Sequence record: OZ335961.1
Reading direction: 5' to 3' (one strand)
DNA: 64,000 bases
Origin: a phage
The translations under genes were made by a program, and so were the position numbers. Shown in pieces: positions 4,865-32,498 of the stretch; position 1 is the stretch's first letter, and each line of letters begins with the position of its first letter. A model generated the notes under the pieces. It searched no databases. It saw only the letters and a program-made list of their open reading frames with translations, and had not been told where the DNA came from.

Positions 4865-5199
4865 TTCATAATCACCAAATAAGCAGATTTAGCAGTTTCA
4901 ACACGATAAATTTCGTGACGAAGTTTAGTTATACTTTTAATAACAGAACTAATTATATTCTGCCCGTCTTTAAAGCGGTTTTTCTTATCAATAAAAATTG
5001 CGCCAACCATCTTTTTGTGAAGCTCAACCGGATACTTCGTCACAATAATAGCATCATACACAGAAGGATGAATACTATTCACTAGAGTGTCATTCATTAA
5101 AGTTATTCTAATGAACTGTGCTGTGTCAGAGTCAAGCGCTCTATGATCGCCAGTATCATTTTCAAGACAAGTATCAATTATATCAGTTAAATTCATCAT
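4861..5199 (-). CDS. hypothetical protein (112 aa)
   Basis: ORF track; cd-pseT interval. Confidence 0.5.
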   Translation of the reverse strand: MMNLTDIIDTCLENDTGDHRALDSDTAQFIRITLMNDTLVNSIHPSVYDAIIVTKYPVELHKKMVGAIFIDKKNRFKDGQNIISSVIKSITKLRHEIYRVETAKSAYLVIMK

Positions 5200-5432
5200 A
5201 GTACGCCATACACCCTTTGTGCTTCAACTAATCCATCAAAATCCAATTTGAGATGTGTTATTTGGTCACCATCACCTGGATTCACAATTACTAATACTGA
5301 ACGAGGAGTTTCGGTAATAACACGAACCGATGTTTCTGGAAATCGTTCAGAAACCTTATTTACCAATTCCTGAGCAAATAGTTTAACTTTTTCTTGGAAT
5401 TCTTTAACAGTAATTGGTTTTTCGCTTAGCAT
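5196..5432 (-). CDS. hypothetical protein (78 aa)
   Basis: ORF track; cd-pseT interval. Confidence 0.45.
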   Translation of the reverse strand: MLSEKPITVKEFQEKVKLFAQELVNKVSERFPETSVRVITETPRSVLVIVNPGDGDQITHLKLDFDGLVEAQRVYGVL

Positions 5433-5953
5433 GTTGATCCCAGCTCCTTACTTTCAACGTTTTTAACTAATTTGACAGAAACTAATTCAGCATCTTGAGT
5501 AATCATTACCGGACCTTCTTCATACTCTTCGAGATACTCTAGAGCTTTCTTTTTAGCTTCTTCCTTCGTATCAGTTTGAGCATAGATATAAAACATACAA
5601 CCAGTAATACCTACTACTTTCCACTTAATTTCTTTATCAGCTTTAATTTCAAATTTACTGACAGAGTCATCTTTTTGAACTTCTTCGAAAAAAGAATATT
5701 CTAACATATAAGCAATTGAAAATAACGGGCTAACTTTATAGGATTCGCCCATTACATCAACAGCTTTATACCAGCAATCATCAATTTCACGTTTAATGCT
5801 AATAACATTTTTCGCAGGATCTATTTTTACTTTAAATGAATTTTCCCCAATAAACTGAGCAATTCGTTTATTAGCCCCACAGGTTTCATTAAAAATATCT
5901 TTATATCCAGCTTTAAAGCGATAAACCTTATCTTCTTCAAACCATTCGCTCAT
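5426..5953 (-). CDS. hypothetical protein (175 aa)
   Basis: ORF track; early promoter-like element upstream at ~5983-6012. Confidence 0.55.
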   Translation of the reverse strand: MSEWFEEDKVYRFKAGYKDIFNETCGANKRIAQFIGENSFKVKIDPAKNVISIKREIDDCWYKAVDVMGESYKVSPLFSIAYMLEYSFFEEVQKDDSVSKFEIKADKEIKWKVVGITGCMFYIYAQTDTKEEAKKKALEYLEEYEEGPVMITQDAELVSVKLVKNVESKELGSTC

Positions 5954-5982
5954 TTCAATTTCCTCATTTGTTTTGGTAGAGC

Positions 5983-6012
5983 TATAATATCACAACTCTA
6001 CCGTAAAGTAAA
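5983..6012 (-). promoter_or_regulatory. T4-type early promoter
   Basis: GTTTAC -35 and TATTAT/TATAAT-like -10; precedes ORF 5426..5953. Confidence 0.45.
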
Positions 6013-6015
6013 CTG

Positions 6016-6291
6016 TTAAATTGCCTTGAATTCTGATGTCTGTGATTCAAAGCGAATATCGCCTGTGATGACTAGCTCAGCGTCAAGACCAAATACGACA
6101 ATGATATGCGCGGAACCTGGATACAGCGTAATGGCAATAGAATCCACCTGGTCTGGAAGCAAAGTGTTCAATACATGAGTCACTTGAGCATGAATTCTAA
6201 GCTCAGCTGCGTTATCAAGCTTTTCAAACATATTATTAGCAATAATTTGACTAAACACTACTTCTACGATTTTAGAATAAGTCGGAAACAT
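6016..6291 (-). CDS. hypothetical protein (91 aa)
   Basis: ORF track. Confidence 0.45.
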   Translation of the reverse strand: MFPTYSKIVEVVFSQIIANNMFEKLDNAAELRIHAQVTHVLNTLLPDQVDSIAITLYPGSAHIIVVFGLDAELVITGDIRFESQTSEFKAI

Positions 6292-6293
6292 AT

Positions 6294-6494
6294 TTACCTC
6301 ACATAATTTTCTTCAAGCCAATCAATAACATCCAACGCATTATCAAAAGTTGAACCATCTACTCTGTCTTCTGTTTCATAATCAAGAACATCTAAGCCTA
6401 CTCTTCCATCAACAATAGGCCATAAACAAAATAGATATTTCTTTTCTTTTTCAATTTTATCACAAAGTTGATAAATCTTTTCTATGTTATTCAT
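6294..6494 (-). CDS. hypothetical protein (66 aa)
   Basis: ORF track. Confidence 0.4.
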   Translation of the reverse strand: MNNIEKIYQLCDKIEKEKKYLFCLWPIVDGRVGLDVLDYETEDRVDGSTFDNALDVIDWLEENYVR

Positions 6495-6683
6495 AAGTTT
6501 TCCATGGTAAAGGCAGTTTAGTTTTCTTTACTGTTAGTTCAACATCAGGATTCTTTTCTCTTAATTTAAGACATTCCTCCCAAGCTCTGATTTCACTAGT
6601 GAATACACAAAATTGCCCATTACTAGTACCAACTAAACCGCTATTTACAATAACAATAGACCAAGTTTCATGATGCCAAGCCA

Positions 6684-6684
<1 letters not shown>
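6487..6684 (-). CDS. hypothetical protein (65 aa)
   Basis: ORF track; abuts the pseT start. Confidence 0.4.
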
Positions 6685-7905
<1,221 letters not shown>

Positions 7906-7909
<4 letters not shown>

Positions 7910-8136
7910 CTATTTTTCTCAACCAATGATTGAATATAATCATGTAGGTCTTTAGATGCTTTACCCCACTTATTTTGGTATTCATTTTTAAGATTAGCAC
8001 GAGATTGAGCTAATAAAACATCATTAGTTGGAGGTAAAGATTCTAACCGCTGAATCTGGCGTCCGTAAATCATTGCAGCCATCTCGGATTCATAAATCAA
8101 TCCTTTGAGATGTTCAAATTGATGCCATGAAATCAT
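7906..8136 (-). CDS. hypothetical protein (76 aa)
   Basis: ORF track; pseT-alc interval. Confidence 0.45.
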
Positions 8137-8432
8137 TTACATTTATCCTCTTTTAGCTCTTGACGATAATAACATATCATAGTTTTCTGATCATGCACAT
8201 ATCGTTTTACATCATTAAGCCAAATACGAAATTCCTGGGAATCTTCAAATGGCATACCGACCCAAGCTTTACCATCGATAACTTTAACTTGCCAAGATAG
8301 TTTAGCTTCATCATATGACTTTATCTGCACAGGCCAATTAGGATGAACTGTTTCTTTCTTTACTTCTAGAGGCTTTGTCGAACAACCAACTAGAAGACCA
8401 ATAGATAATATTACTGCTGATAGTTTAATCAT
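8133..8432 (-). CDS. o-spanin-like outer-membrane lipoprotein (Rz1 equivalent)
   Basis: N-terminal signal peptide with lipobox LLVGC; directly downstream of the i-spanin-like ORF; corresponds to the T4 pseT.2/pseT.3 spanin pair. Confidence 0.5.
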   Translation of the reverse strand: MIKLSAVILSIGLLVGCSTKPLEVKKETVHPNWPVQIKSYDEAKLSWQVKVIDGKAWVGMPFEDSQEFRIWLNDVKRYVHDQKTMICYYRQELKEDKCK

Positions 8433-8782
8433 TTAGAAAGGTCCTGGATGTCTTCTGCGAACTTGTTGAAGGAGTTGTTGATTTGTTTTTCAACCAATCC
8501 TGGCTTATGAGCCACCACATCCGCCTTCTTTGCGTCTTTGCGCAGTTTTTCATTTTCACGCTCAATAGCAGCAATTGCCTCACGATTTTTATTATTCATC
8601 GCATCAATATAATTATACTGAATTCGCAAATTATTTAATGCTAAAGCGTTTTCATTGGCCGTTTTTGTAATTTCAGTAACCGATGTTTCTAATCTTTCTA
8701 CCTTATTTTTTAAAATAATAGATGTTCCGCCAAATGCTATTACAAGTAATAGCAATCCAGCTGTAAAATTACTTACATGCAT
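8429..8782 (-). CDS. i-spanin-like protein (Rz equivalent)
   Basis: N-terminal transmembrane helix followed by long coiled-coil-like charged region; 4-nt overlap with lipoprotein gene. Confidence 0.5.
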   Translation of the reverse strand: MHVSNFTAGLLLLVIAFGGTSIILKNKVERLETSVTEITKTANENALALNNLRIQYNYIDAMNNKNREAIAAIERENEKLRKDAKKADVVAHKPGLVEKQINNSFNKFAEDIQDLSK

Positions 8783-9276
8783 AAAGTTTTAATAACCTCT
8801 ACAATATCGTCTTGAGAAAGACCGTTAATTAAAATATGATGTTCAGCCGGAGATTTAGAAATTTTAAAGCATGCCTCAACATCTTCTGCCATATCCGATG
8901 CGCTACGATTTGGATTACTAATTCCAAGACGATGTTTTCCCGTCAAAGGATTAACGATGATGTAGCATTTACAATTATTGATATGAACATTAGGTTGAGT
9001 CTGATTAATGAACACATCACAATCATATTTCGCAAGCTGATTTTCTAAAAAGACTTTCATCTCCTCAACTGCATCAGGAAGCATATCACGGGCTTGCTCA
9101 AGACGACGATTTCGATATTCTTTAATGGTCGTTTTCCGCTTGACTTGCTTAGCTAAATCTTTCTTAAGATCGGTGATATATCCAACTCGACGATTTCCTT
9201 TAAATACAGAAATCCCATCTGTAGTATCACCGTATGCTTCAACGACCATCTCAGTAGTAATAAGCTGCAAATCCAT
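8773..9276 (-). CDS. alc: Alc (host transcription termination/unfolding protein)
   Basis: ~167 aa in the T4 alc position adjacent to rnlA; early-promoter element upstream at ~9308-9337. Confidence 0.6.
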   Translation of the reverse strand: MDLQLITTEMVVEAYGDTTDGISVFKGNRRVGYITDLKKDLAKQVKRKTTIKEYRNRRLEQARDMLPDAVEEMKVFLENQLAKYDCDVFINQTQPNVHINNCKCYIIVNPLTGKHRLGISNPNRSASDMAEDVEACFKISKSPAEHHILINGLSQDDIVEVIKTLCM

Positions 9277-22296: not shown

Positions 22297-25200
22297 ATGG
22301 CCGAGATTAAAAGAAAGTTCAGAGCAGAAGATGGTCTGGACGCAGGTGGCGATAAAATAATCAACGTAGCTTTAGCTGATCGTACCGTAGGAACTGACGG
22401 TGTTAACGTTGATTACTTAATTCAAGAAAACACAGTTCAACAATATGATCCAACTCGTGGATATTTAAAAGATTTTGTAATCATTTATAATAATCGTTTT
22501 TGGGCAGCAACGGATAATATTCCAAAACCTGCTGGAAGTTTTAATAGAATTCGTTGGAAAGCATTACGTACTGATGCCGTATATACAACCGTATCATCTG
22601 GACCGTATCAATTAAAATCCGGAGAAGCAATTTCAGTAGATACATCAGTTGGTAATGACATTGAGTTTACTTTACCACCTTCTCCGCTCGATGGAGAAAC
22701 AGTAATAATTCAAGATATCGGTGGAAAACCTGGTATAAATCAGGTTAAAATAAGTTCTTCAAATCAGAGCATTGTTAATTTTAGAGGTGAACAAGTACGT
22801 TCAGTTTTAATGACTCATCCAAAGTCACAGATGATATTCATTTTTAATAATCGTTTGTGGCAAATGTATGTTGCTGATTATAGCAGAGAAGCTGCAATTG
22901 TTACTCCATCGACTGCGTATCAAGCACAATCTAATGATTTTATCGTGCGTAGATTTACTTCCGCAGCGCCGATTAATATTAAACTTCCGAAATTTGCTAA
23001 TCATGGCGATATTATTAATTTCGTTGATTTAGATAAATTAAATCCTCTTTATCATACAATTGTCACGACATATGATGAAACAACTTCAGTACAAGAAGTT
23101 GGAACTCATTCCATTGAAGGCCGTACATCGATTGACGGTTTCTTGATGTTTGATGATAATGAAAAATTATGGAGATTGTTTGACGGGGATAGTAAAGCGC
23201 GTTTACGTATCATAACGACTAATTCAAACATTCGTCCAAATGAAGAAGTTATGGTATTTGGTGCGAATAACGGAACAACCCAAACAATTGAGCTTCAGCT
23301 TCCAACTAATATTTCTGTTGGTGATACTGTTAAAATTTCCATGAATTACATGAGAAAAGGCCAAACAGTTAAAATCAAAGCTGCCGGTGAAGATAAAATT
23401 GCTTCTTCAGTTCAATTGTTGCAATTCCCAAAGCGTTCAGAGTATCCGCCTGAAGCTGAATGGGTGACTGTTCAAGAATTAGTTTTTAATGGTGAAACTA
23501 ATTATGTTCCAGTTTTACAGCTTGCTTATATTGAAGATTCTGACGGAAAATACTGGGTAGTACAACAAAACGTTCCAACAGTTGAAAGAGTTGATTCTTT
23601 AAATAATTCTACTAGAGCAAGATTAGGCGTAATTGCTTTAGCTACACAAGCCCAAGCTAACGTCGATTTAGAAAATTCTCCACAAAAAGAATTAGCAATT
23701 ACTCCAGAAACATTAGCTAACCGTACTGCTACAGAAACTCGTAGAGGTATCGCAAGAATAGCAACTACTGCTCAAGTAAATCAGAACACTACATTCTCTT
23801 TTGCTGATGACCTTATCATCACTCCTAAAAAGCTGAATGAAAGAACTGCTACAGAAACTCGCAGAGGTGTTGCTGAAATTGCTACGCAGCAGGAAACTAA
23901 TACAGGTACTGATGATACTACAATCATCACTCCTAAAAAGCTTCAAGCTCGTCAAGGTTCTGAAACATTATCGGGTATTGTAACTTTTGTATCTACCGCA
24001 GGAGCTACTCCAGCCTCTAGTCGTGAATTAAATGGTACAAATGTTTATAATAAAAATACTAATAATTTAGTTGTTTCGCCTAAAGCTTTGGATCAGTATA
24101 AAGCTACTCCAACACAACAAGGCGCAGTAATTTTAGCAGTTGAAAGTGAAGTAATTGCTGGACAGAGTCAAGAAGGATGGGCAAATGCGGTTGTAACGCC
24201 AGAAACGTTACATAAAAAAACATCAACTGATGGAAGAATTGGTTTAATTGAAATTGCTACGCAAAGCGAAGTTAATACAGGAACTGATTATACTCGCGCA
24301 GTCACTCCTAAAACTTTAAATGACCGTAGAGCAACTGAAAGTTTAAGTGGTATAGCTGAAATTGCTACACAAGTTGAATTCGACGCAGGCGTCGACGATA
24401 CTCGTATCTCTACACCATTAAAAATTAAAACTAGATTTGATAGTACTGATCGTACTTCTGTTGTTGCTCTGTCTGGATTAGTTGAATCAGGAACTCTCTG
24501 GGACCATTATACCCTTAATATTCTTGAAGCAAATGAGACACAACGTGGTACACTTCGTGTGGCTACACAAGTTGAAGCTGCTGCAGGAACATTAGATAAT
24601 GTTTTGATAACTCCTAAAAAGCTTTTAGGTACTAAATCTACTGAAGCGCAAGAAGGCGTTATTAAAGTTGCAACTCAAGTTGAAACTGTTACTGGAACGT
24701 CAGCAAATACTGCTGTATCTCCAAAAAATTTAAAATGGATTGTGCAAAGTGAACCTACTTGGGCAGCAACTACTTTGGTAAGAGGTTTTGTTAAAACTTC
24801 ATCTGGTTCAATTACATTCGTTGGTAATGATACAGTTGGTTCAACACAGTCATTAGACTTGTACGAGAAAAATAGCTATGCAGTATCGCCATATGAATTA
24901 AACCGTGTATTAGCAAATTATTTGCCGTTAAAAGCAAAAGCTGTAGATAGTAATTTATTGGATGGTCTAGATTCATCTCAGTTCATTCGTAGGGATATTG
25001 CGCAGACGGTTAATGGTTCACTAACCTTAACACAACAAACGAATCTGAGTGCCCCTCTTGTATCGTCTAGTACTGCTACGTTTGGTGGATCAGTTTCGGC
25101 AAATAGTACATTAACTATTTCTAATACTGGAACGGCAACTCGTCTGATTTTTGAGAAAGGACCTCAAACTGGGACGAACCCAGCTCAAACGATGACAGTC

Positions 25201-26166
25201 AGAGTGTGGGGAAATCAATTCAGCGGTGAATCGGACACAACACGTTCTACCGTATTTGAAGTTAGTGATGAAACGTCTAGTCATTTTTATTCTCAGCGTA
25301 ATAAAGCTGGTAATATAACATTTAATATCAATGGTACAGTAACGCCGATAAATGTTAATGCTTCAGGAACATTGAATGCGAATGGCGTAGCAACATTCGG
25401 CAGTTCGGTTACTGCTAATGGCGAATTTATCAGTAAATCATCGAATGCTTTTAGAGCAATAAACGGTGATTATGGATTCTTTATTCGTAATGATGGTGCT
25501 AACACCTATTTTATGCTTACTGCATCTGGTGATCAGACCGGTGGATTTAATGGATTACGTCCTTTAACTATTAATAATGCATCTGGTCAAGTAACGATTG
25601 GTGAAAGTTTAATCATTGCCAAAGGTGCTACTATAAGTTCAGGCGGTTTAACTGTTAACTCGAGAATTCGTTCTCAGGGTACTAAAACCTCTGATTTATA
25701 TACCCGTGCGCCAACATCTGATACTGTAGGATTCTGGTCAATCGATATTAATGATTCAGCCACTTATAACCAGTTCCCGGGTTATTTTAAGATGGTTGAA
25801 AAAACTAATGAAGTGACTGGGCTTCCATACTTAGAACGTGGTGAAGAAGTTAAATCTCCTGGTACATTGACCCAGTTTGGTAACACACTTGATTCGCTTT
25901 ACCAAGATTGGATTACTTATCCAACGACTCCAGAAGCACGTACCACTCGCTGGACACGTACATGGCAGAAAACCAAAAACTCTTGGTCAAGTTTTGTTCA
26001 GGTATTTGACGGAGGTAACCCTCCTCAACCTTCAGATATAGGAGCGATCCCATCTGATAACGGAATAATAGGTAATCTTACTATTCGCGATTTCTTACGA
26101 ATTGGTAATGTTCGCATTATTCCTGACCCAGTGAATAAAACTGTTAAATTTGAGTGGATTGAATAA
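22297..26166 (+). CDS. 34: long tail fibre proximal subunit gp34
   Basis: 1289 aa, same length as T4 gp34; internal repeated modules; late promoter TATAAATA upstream. Confidence 0.95.
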   Translation: MAEIKRKFRAEDGLDAGGDKIINVALADRTVGTDGVNVDYLIQENTVQQYDPTRGYLKDFVIIYNNRFWAATDNIPKPAGSFNRIRWKALRTDAVYTTVSSGPYQLKSGEAISVDTSVGNDIEFTLPPSPLDGETVIIQDIGGKPGINQVKISSSNQSIVNFRGEQVRSVLMTHPKSQMIFIFNNRLWQMYVADYSREAAIVTPSTAYQAQSNDFIVRRFTSAAPINIKLPKFANHGDIINFVDLDKLNPLYHTIVTTYDETTSVQEVGTHSIEGRTSIDGFLMFDDNEKLWRLFDGDSKARLRIITTNSNIRPNEEVMVFGANNGTTQTIELQLPTNISVGDTVKISMNYMRKGQTVKIKAAGEDKIASSVQLLQFPKRSEYPPEAEWVTVQELVFNGETNYVPVLQLAYIEDSDGKYWVVQQNVPTVERVDSLNNSTRARLGVIALATQAQANVDLENSPQKELAITPETLANRTATETRRGIARIATTAQVNQNTTFSFADDLIITPKKLNERTATETRRGVAEIATQQETNTGTDDTTIITPKKLQARQGSETLSGIVTFVSTAGATPASSRELNGTNVYNKNTNNLVVSPKALDQYKATPTQQGAVILAVESEVIAGQSQEGWANAVVTPETLHKKTSTDGRIGLIEIATQSEVNTGTDYTRAVTPKTLNDRRATESLSGIAEIATQVEFDAGVDDTRISTPLKIKTRFDSTDRTSVVALSGLVESGTLWDHYTLNILEANETQRGTLRVATQVEAAAGTLDNVLITPKKLLGTKSTEAQEGVIKVATQVETVTGTSANTAVSPKNLKWIVQSEPTWAATTLVRGFVKTSSGSITFVGNDTVGSTQSLDLYEKNSYAVSPYELNRVLANYLPLKAKAVDSNLLDGLDSSQFIRRDIAQTVNGSLTLTQQTNLSAPLVSSSTATFGGSVSANSTLTISNTGTATRLIFEKGPQTGTNPAQTMTVRVWGNQFSGESDTTRSTVFEVSDETSSHFYSQRNKAGNITFNINGTVTPINVNASGTLNANGVATFGSSVTANGEFISKSSNAFRAINGDYGFFIRNDGANTYFMLTASGDQTGGFNGLRPLTINNASGQVTIGESLIIAKGATISSGGLTVNSRIRSQGTKTSDLYTRAPTSDTVGFWSIDINDSATYNQFPGYFKMVEKTNEVTGLPYLERGEEVKSPGTLTQFGNTLDSLYQDWITYPTTPEARTTRWTRTWQKTKNSWSSFVQVFDGGNPPQPSDIGAIPSDNGIIGNLTIRDFLRIGNVRIIPDPVNKTVKFEWIE

Positions 26167-26174
26167 GAGGTATT

Positions 26175-27290
26175 ATGGAAAAATTTATGGCAGAGTTTGG
26201 ACAAGGATATGTCCAAACGCCATTTTTATCGGAAAGTAATTCAGTAAGATACAAAATAAGTATAGCGGGTTCTTGCCCGCTTTCCACAGCAGGACCGTAT
26301 GTTAAATTTCAAGATAACCCAGTTGGAAATCAAACATTTAGTGCAGGTCTTCATTTAAGAGTTTTTGATCCTTCTACGGGAGCATTAGTTGATAGTAAGT
26401 CATATGCTTTTTCTACTTCAAATAATACTACATCAGCTGCTTTTGTTAGTTTCATGAATTCTTTGTCAAACAATAGACTTGCTGCTATATTGACTAGCGG
26501 AAAGGTTAATTTTCCTCCTGAAGTGGTATCTTGGCTAAGGAAAGCAGGAACTTCAGTTTTTCCATCAGATTCAGTATTGTCAAGATTTGACGTATCATAT
26601 GCTGCTTTTTACACTTCTTCTAAAAGAGCTATTGCATTAGAACATGTTAAACTAAGTAATAGAAAAAGCACAGATGATTATCAAACTATTTTAGATGTTG
26701 TATTTGACAGCTTAGAAGATGTTGGGGCGACAGGATTTCCTAAAAGAACATATGAAAGTGTCGAGCAATTTATGTCAGCGGTTGGTGGAACTAATAACGA
26801 AATTGCGCGATTGCCAACTTCAGCTGCTATAAGTAAACTTTCTGACTATAATTTAATTCCTGGTGATGTTCTTTATCTTAAAGCACAGTTATATGCTGAT
26901 GCTGATTTACTTGATCTTGGAACTACAAATATATCCATTCGTTTTTATGATGCATCAAATGGATATATTTCTTCGACACAGGCTGAGTTTACTGGACAAG
27001 CTGGATCTTGGGAATTAAAGGAAGATTATGTAGTTGTTCCTGAAAATGCAGTCGGATTTACGATATATGCACAGAGAACTGCTCAAGCTGGTCAAGGCGG
27101 CATGAGGAATTTAAGTTTTTCTGAAGTGTCAAGAAATGGCGGCATTTCAAAACCTGCCGAATTTGGCGTCAATGGTATTCGCGTTAATTATGTCTGTGAA
27201 TCGGCTTCACCTCCAGATATAATGGTACTTCCTACACAAGCATCGTCTAAAACTGGCAAAGTATTTGGGCAAGAATTTAGAGAAGTTTAA
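26175..27290 (+). CDS. 35: long tail fibre hinge protein gp35
   Basis: 371 aa; MEKFMAE... as recalled for T4 gp35; SD-ATG immediately after gene 34. Confidence 0.85.
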   Translation: MEKFMAEFGQGYVQTPFLSESNSVRYKISIAGSCPLSTAGPYVKFQDNPVGNQTFSAGLHLRVFDPSTGALVDSKSYAFSTSNNTTSAAFVSFMNSLSNNRLAAILTSGKVNFPPEVVSWLRKAGTSVFPSDSVLSRFDVSYAAFYTSSKRAIALEHVKLSNRKSTDDYQTILDVVFDSLEDVGATGFPKRTYESVEQFMSAVGGTNNEIARLPTSAAISKLSDYNLIPGDVLYLKAQLYADADLLDLGTTNISIRFYDASNGYISSTQAEFTGQAGSWELKEDYVVVPENAVGFTIYAQRTAQAGQGGMRNLSFSEVSRNGGISKPAEFGVNGIRVNYVCESASPPDIMVLPTQASSKTGKVFGQEFREV

Positions 27291-27352: not shown

Positions 27353-28003
27353 ATGGCTGATTTAAAAGTAGGTTCAACTGTGGGTGGATCTGTCATTTGG
27401 CATCAAGGAAATTTTCCATTGAATTCAGCCGGTGACGATGTACTCTACAAATCATTTAAAATATATTCAGAATATAATAAACCGCAGGCAGCTGATAACG
27501 ATTTCGTTTCTAAAGCTAATGGTGGTACTTACACCGGTCCAGTTACTATTAATTATGGTGTAAATAGTTATCTTCAATTAAGTAATAATGAAACCCCCAT
27601 TCGAATTCGTTCTGGTGGCGGTACCGGTAATACTCTTGTAGTTGGCGGCTCTTCTGGCGGTATTAGTTTTAGACCTGCAGGTAGTGAAATCACAACTGGA
27701 CAAATTACTATTACGCCAGAAGGTTTGACAACATTTACTAGGGCTGTAACGGCTCCATCTGTAACTGTTACATCTACTCCTTCCGCAGCATCTGATGTTA
27801 CTCGTAAAGATTATGTTGATGGAGCAATAAATACTGTTACAGCAAATGCAAACTCTAGAGTGTTACGATCTGGTGACACCATGACAGGTAATTTAACAGC
27901 GCCAAACTTTTTCTCGCAGAATCCTGCATCTCAACCTTCACACGTTCCACGATTTGATCAAATTGTTATTAAAGATTCTGTTCAAGATTTCGGCTATTAT
28001 TAA
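27353..28003 (+). CDS. 36: long tail fibre distal connector gp36
   Basis: 216 aa; own late promoter TATAAATA at ~27322; precedes gene 37. Confidence 0.85.
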
Positions 28004-28011
28004 GAGGACTT

Positions 28012-30978
28012 ATGGCTACTTTAAAACAAATACAATTTAAAAGAAGCAAAACTGCAGGTCAACTTCCTGCTGCTTCAGTATTAGCCGAAGGTGAATTGGC
28101 TATTAATTTAAAAGATAAAACAATTTTCACAAAAGATGACTCAGGCAATGTTATAGAATTAGGTTTAAAATATGGAGGAACAATTGATGGTTCTTTAACT
28201 GTTAATGGAAATATAATTGGAAATTTAACAGGTAACGCTGCAACTGCAACGAAATTAAAAACAGCACGAAAAATTAATGGTATATCCTTTGATGGGTCAA
28301 AAGATATCACGCTAACTCCATCTGACATAAATGTCAATAGCACAACGTTTATAAAAAATAACGGCGAATTACCGGTTGATGCTAATTTAGATACGTATGG
28401 GCCTGTTGAAGAATATCTTGGAGTTTGGTCGAAAGCAACTTCAACCAACGCTCAACCAGCAAATAAATTTCCAGAAGAAAATGCTGTAGGTGTGCTAGAA
28501 GTATTTGTGGCCGGTCAATTTGCTGGTACTCAGCGTTATACAACTAGATACGGAAATGTTTATATTCGTTCCTTGACTGCTACATGGAACGGAGTAAACG
28601 GTCCGTGGAGTGTGTGGCGAAATATTCAATCCGGTACTCGTCCACTGTCAACAACAATTGATCTTAATGATTTAGGAGGAGCTGAACACCTTGGTTTGTG
28701 GCGAAATAGTTCAAATTCCATTGCTACATTTGACAGAAATTTCCCAGAAGAGGGGTCGTCAGCTCAAGGTCTTTTGGAAGTATATGAAGGTGGAAACTAT
28801 TCTCGTACACAAAGATATACAACCAGATTTGGTGTTGTTTATACTCGTTGTCTTGCTGCCGCGTGGGATTCTACTGCGCCTAAATGGGGACCGTGGCAAC
28901 AAGTCGGTAATGTCACACCAGCGACTTTTTATGATGGAGATCTGAATGATTTTAAAACTCCTGGGTTATATAATATTTTAGGCACTGATGCCGTTATTAA
29001 TTGTCCTACAGGCGAAGGTTTACCAGCCGTTATTGTTGGTTTGCTGGAAGTTAAACAGCGTGCTTCTGGTGGTGCTATTTTCCAAAAATTTACTACTGCC
29101 GGAACAGGTGCAACTACCCGCGATCGTATTTTTGAGCGCGCATATACCGGCGGTGTGTGGGGTGAATGGAACGAAGTATACACATCTTATTCTCTACCAA
29201 TTACTTTGGGTATGGGCGGTATTAAATCTAACTTAGCAGAGTTAGACTGGCAAGCATTTGATTTTGTTCCTGGTAGTATGTTTAGCGTTCCTTTGAACAA
29301 AATAAAGAACATGCCAGCTAATATGGATTGGGGTACGATTAACGGAAACTTAATTATGTTTTCTGTTGGTCCTAGCGAGCACACCAGCACAGGACGTACT
29401 GTTCAAGTTTGGCGTGGAACTGTATCCCAGACAAACTATCGTTATTTTGTCGTTCGTGTATTCGGTAATCCAGGGAGTAGAACATGTACAGTTCGACGCG
29501 TTGTTCTTGAAGACGGATCACATACTTGGACTGCTAAACAAGATTTTAATGGCGCAGTTAACTTTAACTCTACTGTTAACCTTAATAACACTACCACATT
29601 TAAAACAGAAGTTAAATTCCGCTCGTTGAATGCATTCCGTATGTATGGCGGAAAATTTGGTACATTTTTACGTAATGATGGAGAGAGTCTTTATATTCTT
29701 TCCACCGACGAAGATGATCAAGATGGAAACTTTAATACAAATAGACCTTTCCGTTATGAATTAAGAACTGGTGATGTTACTTTAGGTGGTACTAGTGGTG
29801 CTAACGTTTTAAAATTAAAACGTGATTCTCTCACCGCATTTTTTGGTGGTGATATTAACATGAAAGGCTTGCTGACTTTTGACGCCGGACGTTTAGGATC
29901 ACGAGATTATTTTAAATTTAACCATTGGGGTGATAGTAATAATGCGCGTGATAACATTATTCAGTTAGAAGACAGCAAAGGCGCTCATTTTTCCACTGAA
30001 CGTACTTTAGCGACTGGTGCAATTAAGACTAAATTTTTTGGTGAAATTGAATCCGATGGTAAATTGGTTATTAAACGTCCGGGTGATTCTATTGTATTAT
30101 CAACAACTGCTAGTAATTCTTTGCATATTCGTGGTGACATAGACGGGACTGGTAACTGGTATATTGGTAAGGGTGGTGCTGATAATGGATTAGCGTTATA
30201 TAGTTATGCTACTAATGCTGGTGTATACATTACAAACGCAGGAGATATCACGCTAAGTCCAAAAGGCGTCGAAATGGCCCATGTCAATAACGTTCGATTA
30301 TATGTTCACGGTGAACGTTGGACTGCTAGTCAACCAGGTGATTGGGGTAGTCAGTGGCAAGTGGAAGCGCCAATATTCGTCGATCATGGTTATGTTTCAC
30401 AGGATTGTTATTATCCAATTATTAAAGGAAGAAGTGTAATCACCAATCAAGGGTTTGTAACTGCCGTCGATCTTGGTATTCGTCGTGTCAATAACAATTG
30501 GGGACAAGCAATTATTCGTGTTGGATCTGCGGAGGCATCGCCAGCGGCTGGACACCCTAACGCGGTATTTGAATTTCATTACGACGGTACTTTCTATTCT
30601 CCTGGTAATGGTAACTTTAACGATGTGTATATTCGTTCCGATGGTCGTCTTAAGATTAATAAAAAAGAGCTAGAAAACGGAGCACTTGAAAAAGTATGCC
30701 GACTGAAAGTTTATACATACGATAAGGTTAAGTCTATTAAAGATCGTAGTGTTATTAAACGTGAAGTTGGTATTATTGCTCAGGATCTTGAAAAAGAATT
30801 ACCAGAAGCTGTGTCTAAAGTTGAAGTTGATGGATCTGATGTTCTGACAATTTCTAACTCCGCTGTGAATGCTCTTTTAATTAAGGCTATCCAAGAAATG
30901 AGCGAAGAAATTAAAGAATTAAAAACGCCTTTCTTCACTAAAATTGCTCGCAAAATTAGTAATTATTTTAAATTCTAA
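28012..30978 (+). CDS. 37: long tail fibre distal subunit gp37 with C-terminal intramolecular chaperone-like domain
   Basis: 988 aa; N-terminus similar to gp36/gp34 junction motifs; C-terminal ~113 aa starts at an SDGRLK-type motif. Confidence 0.9.
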
Positions 30979-31010
30979 CAACAAGGGGCTTTGCCCCTTT
31001 GGAGAAAATT

Positions 31011-31811
31011 ATGGCAGTAGTTGGTGTTCCCGGTTGGATTGGAAGTTCATCTGTAAATGAAACAGGACAACGATGGATGAGTCAAGCGGCTGGTCAATTA
31101 AGATTGGGTGTTCCTTGCTGGATGAGCCAATTCGCCGGACGCTCAAGAGAGATTATTCATACCGTAACAGCAAACCATAACTTTAATGGTCAATGGTTCC
31201 GCGACCGTTGCTTTGAAGCTGGCGGTGCACCCATTGTATTCAATATTGTTGGTGATATCGTTTCTTATTCTAAAGATGTGCCACTTTTCTTTATGTATGG
31301 GGATACGCCTAATGAATATGTTGTTCTTAATATTCATGGTGGTGTTCATATGTGGGGTCGTGGTGGTAATGGTGGATACACTCACTCAGGAGGCGACGGT
31401 AACGGTACACAAGGCGGTCATGTTATTCAAAATGATATCGGTGGACGGCTTCGTATTTGGAACTACGGTGTTATAGCTGCTGGGGGTGGCGGCGGTGGTG
31501 GTATTGCATATCGTCCACACTCAGGGGCAAACTGGCAAGATATCGGCGGTGGTGGTGGTCGACCTTTCGGTGGCGCTGGCGGCGGCGGTTATTCCGGTGG
31601 TGCTGCTTCGTATGAAGGTCCGGGTGGTGGTTATGACTATGGTAACGCACACTCCGGCGCAGGCGGTAATGCTGGTGCTGCTGGTCAGAATGCATGGTAT
31701 GACGGCGGTAAAGTTCTTAAAGTTGGTGTTGGTGGTGCGTCTGGTCATGCAGTGTTTGGGTCTTCTCCAACTTGGGGTGCTGTTGGAACAATTTACGGAC
31801 CAAGAGTATAA
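31011..31811 (+). CDS. 38: gp38 tail-fibre adhesin (T2-type, glycine-rich motifs)
   Basis: ~266 aa from ATG with GGAG SD; multiple poly-Gly tracts (GGGGGGG, GGGGG) separating short variable segments. Confidence 0.8.
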
Positions 31812-31841
31812 TTTGAATAAATATCTTTAAAAGGAGGGTCT

Positions 31842-32498
31842 ATGGCAGCACCTAGAATATCATTTTCGCCCTCTGGTATTCTGTTTGGTGTTCTGGATCG
31901 CTTGTTCAAAGATAACGCTACCGGGAAGGTTCTTGCTTCCCGAGTAGCTGTCGTAATTCTTTTATTTATGATGGCGATTGTTTGGTATAGGGGAGATAGT
32001 TTCTTTGAGTACTATAAGCAATCAAAGTATGAAACATACAGTGAAATTATTGAAAAGGAAAGAAACGCACGCTTTGAATCTGTCGCCCTGGAACAACTCC
32101 AGATAGTTCATATATCATCTGAGGCAGACTTTAGTGTGGTGTATTCTTTCCGCCCTAAAAACTTAAACTATTTTGTTGATATTATAGCATACGAAGGAAA
32201 ACTACCTTCAACAATAAGTGAAAAATCACTTGGAGGATATCCTGTTGATAAAACTATGGATGAATATGCAGTTCATTTAAATGGACGTCATTATTATTCC
32301 AACTCAAAATTTGCTTTTTTACCAACCAAAAAGCCTACTCCCGAAATAAATTACATGTACAGTTGTCCATATTTTAATTTGGATAACATCTATGCTGGAA
32401 CAATAACCATGTACTGGTATAGAAATGATCATATAAGTAATGACCGCCTTGAATCAATATGTGCTCAGGCGGCCAGAATATTAGGAAGGGCTAAATAA
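31842..32498 (+). CDS. t: holin t
   Basis: 218 aa, same length as T4 holin T; single N-proximal TM segment with large C-terminal domain; follows gene 38. Confidence 0.8.
   Translation: MAAPRISFSPSGILFGVLDRLFKDNATGKVLASRVAVVILLFMMAIVWYRGDSFFEYYKQSKYETYSEIIEKERNARFESVALEQLQIVHISSEADFSVVYSFRPKNLNYFVDIIAYEGKLPSTISEKSLGGYPVDKTMDEYAVHLNGRHYYSNSKFAFLPTKKPTPEINYMYSCPYFNLDNIYAGTITMYWYRNDHISNDRLESICAQAARILGRAK

Follow-up and report, generated by a model that had tools for sequence, protein, structure and literature searches.

The distal subunit of the long tail fibre, gp37, is a trimer. The founding members of the Peptidase_S74 family are the chaperones of the K1F endosialidase (PDB code 3GW6), of T5 pb1 (4UW8) and of the GA-1 neck appendage (3GUD). 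All three domains lie C-terminally on trimeric fibres or spikes and are released once folding is complete. In T5 pb1 the chain is cut between Thr1263 and Ser1264; Lys1269 activates this serine, the S1264A substitution abolishes processing, and an arginine from the neighbouring chain senses correct folding of the trimer (PMC4690869). C-terminal chaperones that are removed by autoproteolysis are listed for the fibres of S16 and T5 and for the spikes of K1F and phi29 (PMC7289586). The gp37 proteins of T2 and T6 are reported to undergo proteolytic cleavage at the C-terminus (PMC3157838, citing Drexler, Riede and Henning 1986). For S16, the last 113 residues of gp37 are described as an intramolecular chaperone; once the trimer has formed, its autocleavage is said to uncover the surface on which the adhesin gp38 docks (PMC7917993, citing Dunne et al. 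2018), and in the S16 structure three conserved gp38 tryptophans are described as fitting into pockets in the gp37 trimer's base (PMC6851490). The same 2021 report on Yersinia phages (PMC7917993) aligns the S16 site, DLNVS^SDRRIKK (the caret marks the cut), with DVYIR^SDGRLKI of phages fPS-2/65/90 and predicts an Arg/Ser cut in the latter; it describes the sequences that precede the chaperone in fPS-type and S16 gp37 as very different except in the five positions that lead up to the cut. The feature that we describe below is thus already known from S16, T2/T6 and the fPS phages, the last of which share its exact junction.

The window analysed here is a stretch of 64,000 nucleotides of phage DNA (record OZ335961.1), the first 20 kb of which are approximately 95 to 97% identical to several Tequatrovirus genomes. 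An open reading frame (ORF) of 988 codons on the plus strand (28012 to 30978) encodes a precursor of 108.3 kDa. It is preceded by a gp34-sized ORF of 1289 residues (22297 to 26166), a gp35-sized ORF of 371 residues (26175 to 27290) and, directly before it, an ORF of 216 residues (27353 to 28003) that matches the Pfam family Phage_T4_gp36. Downstream, also on the plus strand, lies a glycine-rich ORF (31011 to 31811; 266 residues from the ATG at 31011, or 270 from position 30999) that matches Pfam GP38 (PF05268, E = 3e-66) and Gp38_N (PF21721, E = 1e-19), and the 218-residue ORF that follows takes the position held by holin t in T2 and T6. Because the 988-residue ORF lies between the gp36 and gp38 matches and follows ORFs of gp34 and gp35 size, we identify it as gp37, which makes the locus a T-even gp34-35-36-37-38-t block. 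The ORF list and Pfam agree with this assignment, and a Gp34_trimer match covers residues 519 to 581 of the protein. Over the gp37-gp38 stretch the DNA is 97.5% identical to phages vB_EcoM_Nami and EcNP1, where the corresponding genes are annotated as Tequatrovirus long-tail-fibre distal subunits; this is the best value among the matches listed, none of which is identical over the full length.

The extreme C-terminus of gp37, its last 113 of 988 residues, was found to be an S74 domain. Reading from the letters without database searches, the sequence-only reading had proposed that about 113 C-terminal residues form a chaperone-type domain opening with S-D-G-R-L-K at position 30637, and both the coordinates and the motif proved exact. 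Codon tcc at 30637 to 30639 encodes Ser876, which is predicted to act as the nucleophile and to begin the released fragment, and the codons that follow (gat ggt cgt ctt aag) complete S-D-G-R-L-K as residues 876 to 881. From Ser876 to Phe988 (30973 to 30975) there are exactly 113 residues, followed by the stop codon at 30976 to 30978. The whole domain, which is predicted to be released, therefore occupies 30637 to 30975 on the plus strand and has a mass of 12.8 kDa and a pI of 9.1. When this piece was compared with Pfam-A, it matched PF13884 (Peptidase_S74, "chaperone of endosialidase") with an E value of 3.3e-13 and a score of 50.1 bits, 28 bits above the curated gathering cut-off of 22 bits. 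Residues 1 to 59 of the piece align with positions 1 to 57 of the 58-position profile, and profile position 1 falls on Ser876; the profile search that the earlier reading had suggested as a check thus places the start of the family at the very serine that it had proposed. The matched core (residues 876 to 934; 30637 to 30813, plus strand) consists of a loop and then a mixed alpha/beta unit. Together with the profile and fold matches to solved structures given below, these results make it virtually certain that residues 876 to 988 of gp37 are an S74-type intramolecular chaperone domain.

The residues around the start of this domain correspond to the catalytic junction of its relatives. Lys881 (codon aag, 30652 to 30654, plus strand) lies five residues past Ser876 and is the predicted general base; this S-x4-K spacing is that of Ser1264 and Lys1269 in T5. 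Ser876 aligns with the serine of SDRRIK in S16, SDERLK in 8JOV, SDERHK in GA-1 and SDIRLK in T2, and both the serine and the lysine are kept in S16, 8JOV, GA-1, T2 and T6, as well as in all junction-spanning homologues from the database. The motif D-V-Y-I-R (residues 871 to 875; 30622 to 30636, plus strand) is predicted to be the strand with which mature gp37 ends, so that Arg875 would lie directly N-terminal to the cut. It too is kept in the junction-spanning homologues, with the exception of one that starts at a methionine in place of Arg875, and the junction as a whole is letter for letter DVYIR^SDGRLKI of phages fPS-2/65/90. Neither the sequence nor the monomer model picked out, upstream of the cut, residues of the kind that act as folding sensors in T5 and K1F (an Arg and an Asp, the Arg from the neighbouring chain), because the tip that precedes the domain is unrelated in sequence to those of T5 and K1F. 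Arg875 and Asp871 are close to the predicted cut and cannot be equated with Arg1250 and Asp1239 of T5. Homology to these systems is what places a cleavage, and its exact scissile bond, in this phage, and on that footing gp37 very probably cleaves itself at or beside Arg875/Ser876.

Solved structures and database relatives were then compared with the region by sequence. A phmmer search of all PDB chains with the last 192 residues recovered the distal fibre subunit of S16 (6F45_A, E = 2e-5) in an alignment that spans the junction; the 6F45_A segment aligned with the gp37 junction reads CRDLNVSSDRRIKKDIKAFEN. As a single sequence, gp37 reached only S16 and 8JOV in the PDB. A word-indexed protein search with residues 861 to 988 returned 21 mostly partial proteins, all of them close Enterobacteria-type relatives, and the family profile that we used was made from a 16-sequence alignment, a depth too shallow for statements about conservation across the family. 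Against the PDB, this profile matched S16 gp37 (6F45, E = 9e-11), the putative tail fibre 8JOV (E = 4e-5; SDERLK), the intramolecular chaperone autoprocessing (ICA) domain of MyRF (7DC3, E = 2e-4) and the GA-1 neck-appendage chaperone (3GUD, E = 0.2), the last of which is not significant alone and comes from a chain that starts with SDERHK. The chaperones of K1F and T5 were found by fold search only, and weakly. For a wider survey of homologues we used tblastn against phage records, which found relatives of the 113 residues in 1349 records. Nearly all of them form the C-terminal part of a tail-fibre gene product, and they occur in enterobacterial T-even phages, in T5-like and other phages, and as far afield as the PblB proteins of Streptococcus.

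To describe the fold, residues 861 to 988 were modelled with AlphaFold2 as a monomer from the same 16-sequence alignment, the trimer lying outside the model (mean pLDDT, 79.9; pTM, 0.62). The model contains helices at residues 891 to 897 and 923 to 929 and strands at 900 to 906 and 914 to 921, all in blocks with pLDDT values of about 90, and further strands at 934 to 939 and 942 to 947. The last two strands form a beta-hairpin (934 to 947) that is followed by a long C-terminal helix (949 to 985), and these two elements together occupy 30811 to 30966 on the plus strand. The helix aligns with the C-terminal helices of S16 gp37 and MyRF ICA and, by analogy with the T5 and K1F structures, would be the trimeric coiled-coil stalk of the chaperone (PMC4690869). 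Residues 1 to 10 of the model, just upstream of the cut, have pLDDT values below 50, as expected for part of an intertwined trimer that was modelled as a monomer, and the block around the cut site averages 59. When the model was compared with the PDB using Foldseek, ranks 1 to 11 were all occupied by structures of intramolecular chaperones (7DC3, 3GUD, 3GW6 and 4UW8), and from rank 12 downward the matches were noise, with E values near or above 1. MyRF ICA is the one strong match by structure (7DC3; E = 1e-5, probability 1.00, TM score 0.68); the phage chaperones 3GUD (E = 0.025), 3GW6 (E = 0.08 to 0.45) and 4UW8 (E = 0.26) are weak when taken singly.

Comparison with individual systems showed that the closest are T6 and the T6-like Tequatroviruses. 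When the C-terminal 192 residues are compared, the gp37 of T6 (AP018814) shares 87% identity, with no difference in the final 72. T6 and the T6-like phages RB14, Sf21, ZCEC14 and fPS-2/65/90 carry the same protein, with a DVYIR/SD.RLKINK junction and a 113-residue tail; what differences there are within the domain amount to a few substitutions among its first 40 residues. Over the 113 residues, identity reaches 100% with ZCEC14 and 93.8% with RB14. The gp37 of T2 (AP018813), which is also followed by a gp38 adhesin, is much longer (1341 residues), shares 45% identity and has the junction VYIR/SDIRLK. Its own S74 match covers residues 1243 to 1300 (E = 3e-15), and since the domain starts at residue 1243 of 1341, a homologous cut would remove 99 residues, compared with 113 here. 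Judged from its sequence, the fibre tip in the window is of the T6 type and not strictly of the T2 type. The sequence-only reading had appealed to the processing of gp37 in T2-type phages, with removal of some 120 residues; a C-terminal cleavage is indeed reported for T2 and for T6 (PMC3157838).

Among the more distant systems, the gp37 of S16, represented by the 6F45 construct, carries a 113-residue chaperone described as autocleaved that opens with S-D-R-R-I-K, and a monomeric gp38 is described as docking on the tip that is thereby exposed; the two proteins align clearly but have diverged considerably, and a Ser precedes the cut of S16 where gp37 here has an Arg. K1F, T5 and GA-1 share with gp37 the Pfam family, a related predicted fold, and the Ser/+5 Lys pair. 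Their upstream domains, however, are unrelated to gp37 here and they have no separate adhesin that docks after cleavage, and the K1F and T5 domains are larger (approximately 130 to 150 residues), with long beta-hairpin tentacles. MyRF ICA, the best structural match, is a homologous domain that trimerises and cleaves itself, but it belongs to a eukaryotic (animal) transcription factor that is released from a membrane and has no tail-fibre role.

The adjoining adhesin fits the same pattern. Its first 118 or so residues, which include the attachment domain, are almost identical to those of T6 gp38, whereas the glycine-rich region diverges, so that the two adhesins have the same attachment domain and different receptor-specificity segments. 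Three tryptophans (Trp9, Trp22 and Trp37) are present in this part of the protein. By analogy with S16, we predict that gp38 docks on the gp37 tip once the cut has exposed it.

Three other explanations of these observations were weighed, and all are unlikely because the catalytic pair is intact, homologues cleave themselves in E. coli, and evidence from sequence agrees with that from the fold. The resemblance to S74 could be a product of chance or composition in a helix-rich C-terminus, for which nothing speaks beyond the usual warning that tails resembling coiled coils draw spurious matches. The PF13884 match, however, covers the non-helical core (876 to 934) at a score far above the cut-off; the Foldseek and PDB profile matches point to the same structures, albeit both starting from one 16-sequence alignment; and the homologues in the 1349 phage records sit nearly always where a fibre chaperone would. 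On the Pfam score, the Foldseek result and the PDB profile matches, we reject chance resemblance, which we consider next to inconceivable. A genuine S74-like domain might instead have lost its protease activity and be kept on the mature fibre as a trimerisation or tip domain. Cleavage in this phage is indeed deduced from relatives, and the upstream folding-sensor residues were not located, but Ser876 and Lys881 are intact and conserved, the gp37 proteins of T2 and T6 are reported to be cleaved (PMC3157838), and the neighbouring gp38, with its T6-identical attachment domain, would need a free gp37 tip by the account given for S16 (PMC6851490). An inactive domain is therefore very improbable.

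It is also conceivable that the domain is a folding aid only and that a separate protease of the host or the phage cuts off the C-terminal piece. The paper that cites the 1986 work on T2 is compatible with this, in that the passage concerned speaks of proteolytic cleavage and names no protease (PMC3157838). Against it, the T5 pb1 homologue cleaves itself when expressed alone in E. coli and ceases to do so when the serine is changed to alanine (PMC4690869), S16 gp37 is described as autocleaved (PMC7917993), and the Ser/Lys pair that such self-cleavage uses is present in gp37 here. Cutting by another protease, although the least improbable of the three, is still a long shot. The reading that we prefer, in which an S74 chaperone cleaves itself from gp37, the fragment is released and gp38 docks, has as a whole a probability of roughly 0.9.

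In this preferred reading, it is after the model of the homologues that we take the domain to act as a chaperone and to cleave itself, place the exact cut, and let docking follow cleavage. Three nascent gp37 chains would join through the alpha/beta core and long C-terminal helix of the domain, and their association would nucleate folding of the trimeric beta-helical tip from its C-terminal end. Once the tip had folded correctly, Ser876, activated by Lys881, would attack the Arg875-Ser876 bond in each chain, and a basic fragment of 12.8 kDa would leave each of them. Mature gp37 would then consist of residues 1 to 875 (95.5 kDa) and end in ...NDVYIR. The exposed tip of the trimer would serve as the docking surface for gp38's N-terminal attachment domain, with its three helices and three tryptophans, and the single docked adhesin would carry the receptor specificity of the fibre.

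The value of these results lies in annotation and in the design and engineering of constructs, and they are unsurprising; because earlier descriptions of S16, T2/T6 and the fPS phages cover the domain, its cut site and its role, they advance no open question. For annotation, mature gp37 should be taken as residues 1 to 875. Constructs intended to yield functional tips or gp37-gp38 complexes must retain the 113-residue tail during expression, and in host-range swaps the gp37 tip, the chaperone domain and the attachment domain of gp38 should be treated as one co-adapted unit.

Some smaller observations concern the fragment and its gene. In the T6 subtype, the fragment ends in a distinctive C-terminal tail, where the other aligned subtypes have a longer ending of coiled-coil type; this tail is identical in T6. 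The conservation of this tail is the sole hint that the released fragment might have a second job, such as loading of gp38 or association with the membrane, and we think this most improbable. When compared with shuffled sequence, a small GC hairpin between gp37 and gp38 did not stand out (z = -0.83); it does not match any terminator pattern either, and we dropped it as a candidate terminator or regulatory element. Within gp37, a whole-protein self-BLAST returned no internal repeats; such repeats are visible when the protein is compared segment by segment.

The window gp38, the adhesin encoded downstream of gp37, is nearly identical to T6 gp38 in its attachment domain, but it diverges markedly from that protein across its receptor-specificity part (residues ~119 to 266; 31365 to 31811), where insertions and deletions are found and the loop sequences between the glycine-rich motifs are changed. 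These sequence differences suggest that the receptor specificity of this phage probably differs from that of T6.

ORF calling places the start of gp38 at TTG 30999, yielding a protein that begins MEKIMAVV. However, we found that the Pfam Gp38_N match begins only at residue five of this form, that T2 gp38 starts at the Met equivalent to ATG 31011, and that a GGAG (31001 to 31004) lies 6 nt 5' of this ATG. Collectively, these features argue that ATG 31011 is probably the true start (the region in question being 30999 to 31013), which would yield a protein of 266 amino acids. In the T6 record (AP018814), gp38 is annotated in the longer form. A spacer of 32 nt separates the stop codon of gp37 from the start codon of gp38 and contains a short GC hairpin (AAGGGGC-TTT-GCCCCTT; 30984 to 31000), which adjoins the gp38 ribosome-binding site. 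This hairpin folds no more favorably than shuffled controls do (z = -0.83), and it is not followed by a T run of the kind seen at terminators. A sigma-70-like match (TTGGAA-18 nt-TATAAT, 10 of 12 positions; 31783 to 31812) lies just upstream of a 218-amino-acid ORF at 31842. This match is no evidence of a promoter, because it is the single such site seen between 30400 and 32000, which is below the 3.6 expected from shuffles.

The gp37 fiber subunit contains an internal tandem duplication (28408 to 28905; residues ~133 to 298) in which residues ~133 to 205 and ~224 to 298 are 42% identical (pairwise E value of 5e-20). A third, much weaker copy (residues ~305 to 395), recognized by eye, has the same W..W motif at its end. 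A Pfam search returned no family matching the repeat segments, which are probably knob-like domains repeated along the fiber shaft. In T2 gp37 (AP018813; L001, the T2 record, 5028 to 9053), the Peptidase_S74 chaperone domain starts at residue 1243 of 1341. By homology, the self-cleaved T2 fragment would thus be 99 residues long, which is shorter than the ~120 residues that the sequence-only reading had given for T2 processing. The gp37-gp38 stretch of Pseudomonas phage PsgM02F (OR584013.1) is 95.6% identical to the enterobacterial T-even locus of the window. The host label of this record is Pseudomonas coronafaciens pv. garcae, which is odd for a Tequatrovirus-type fiber.
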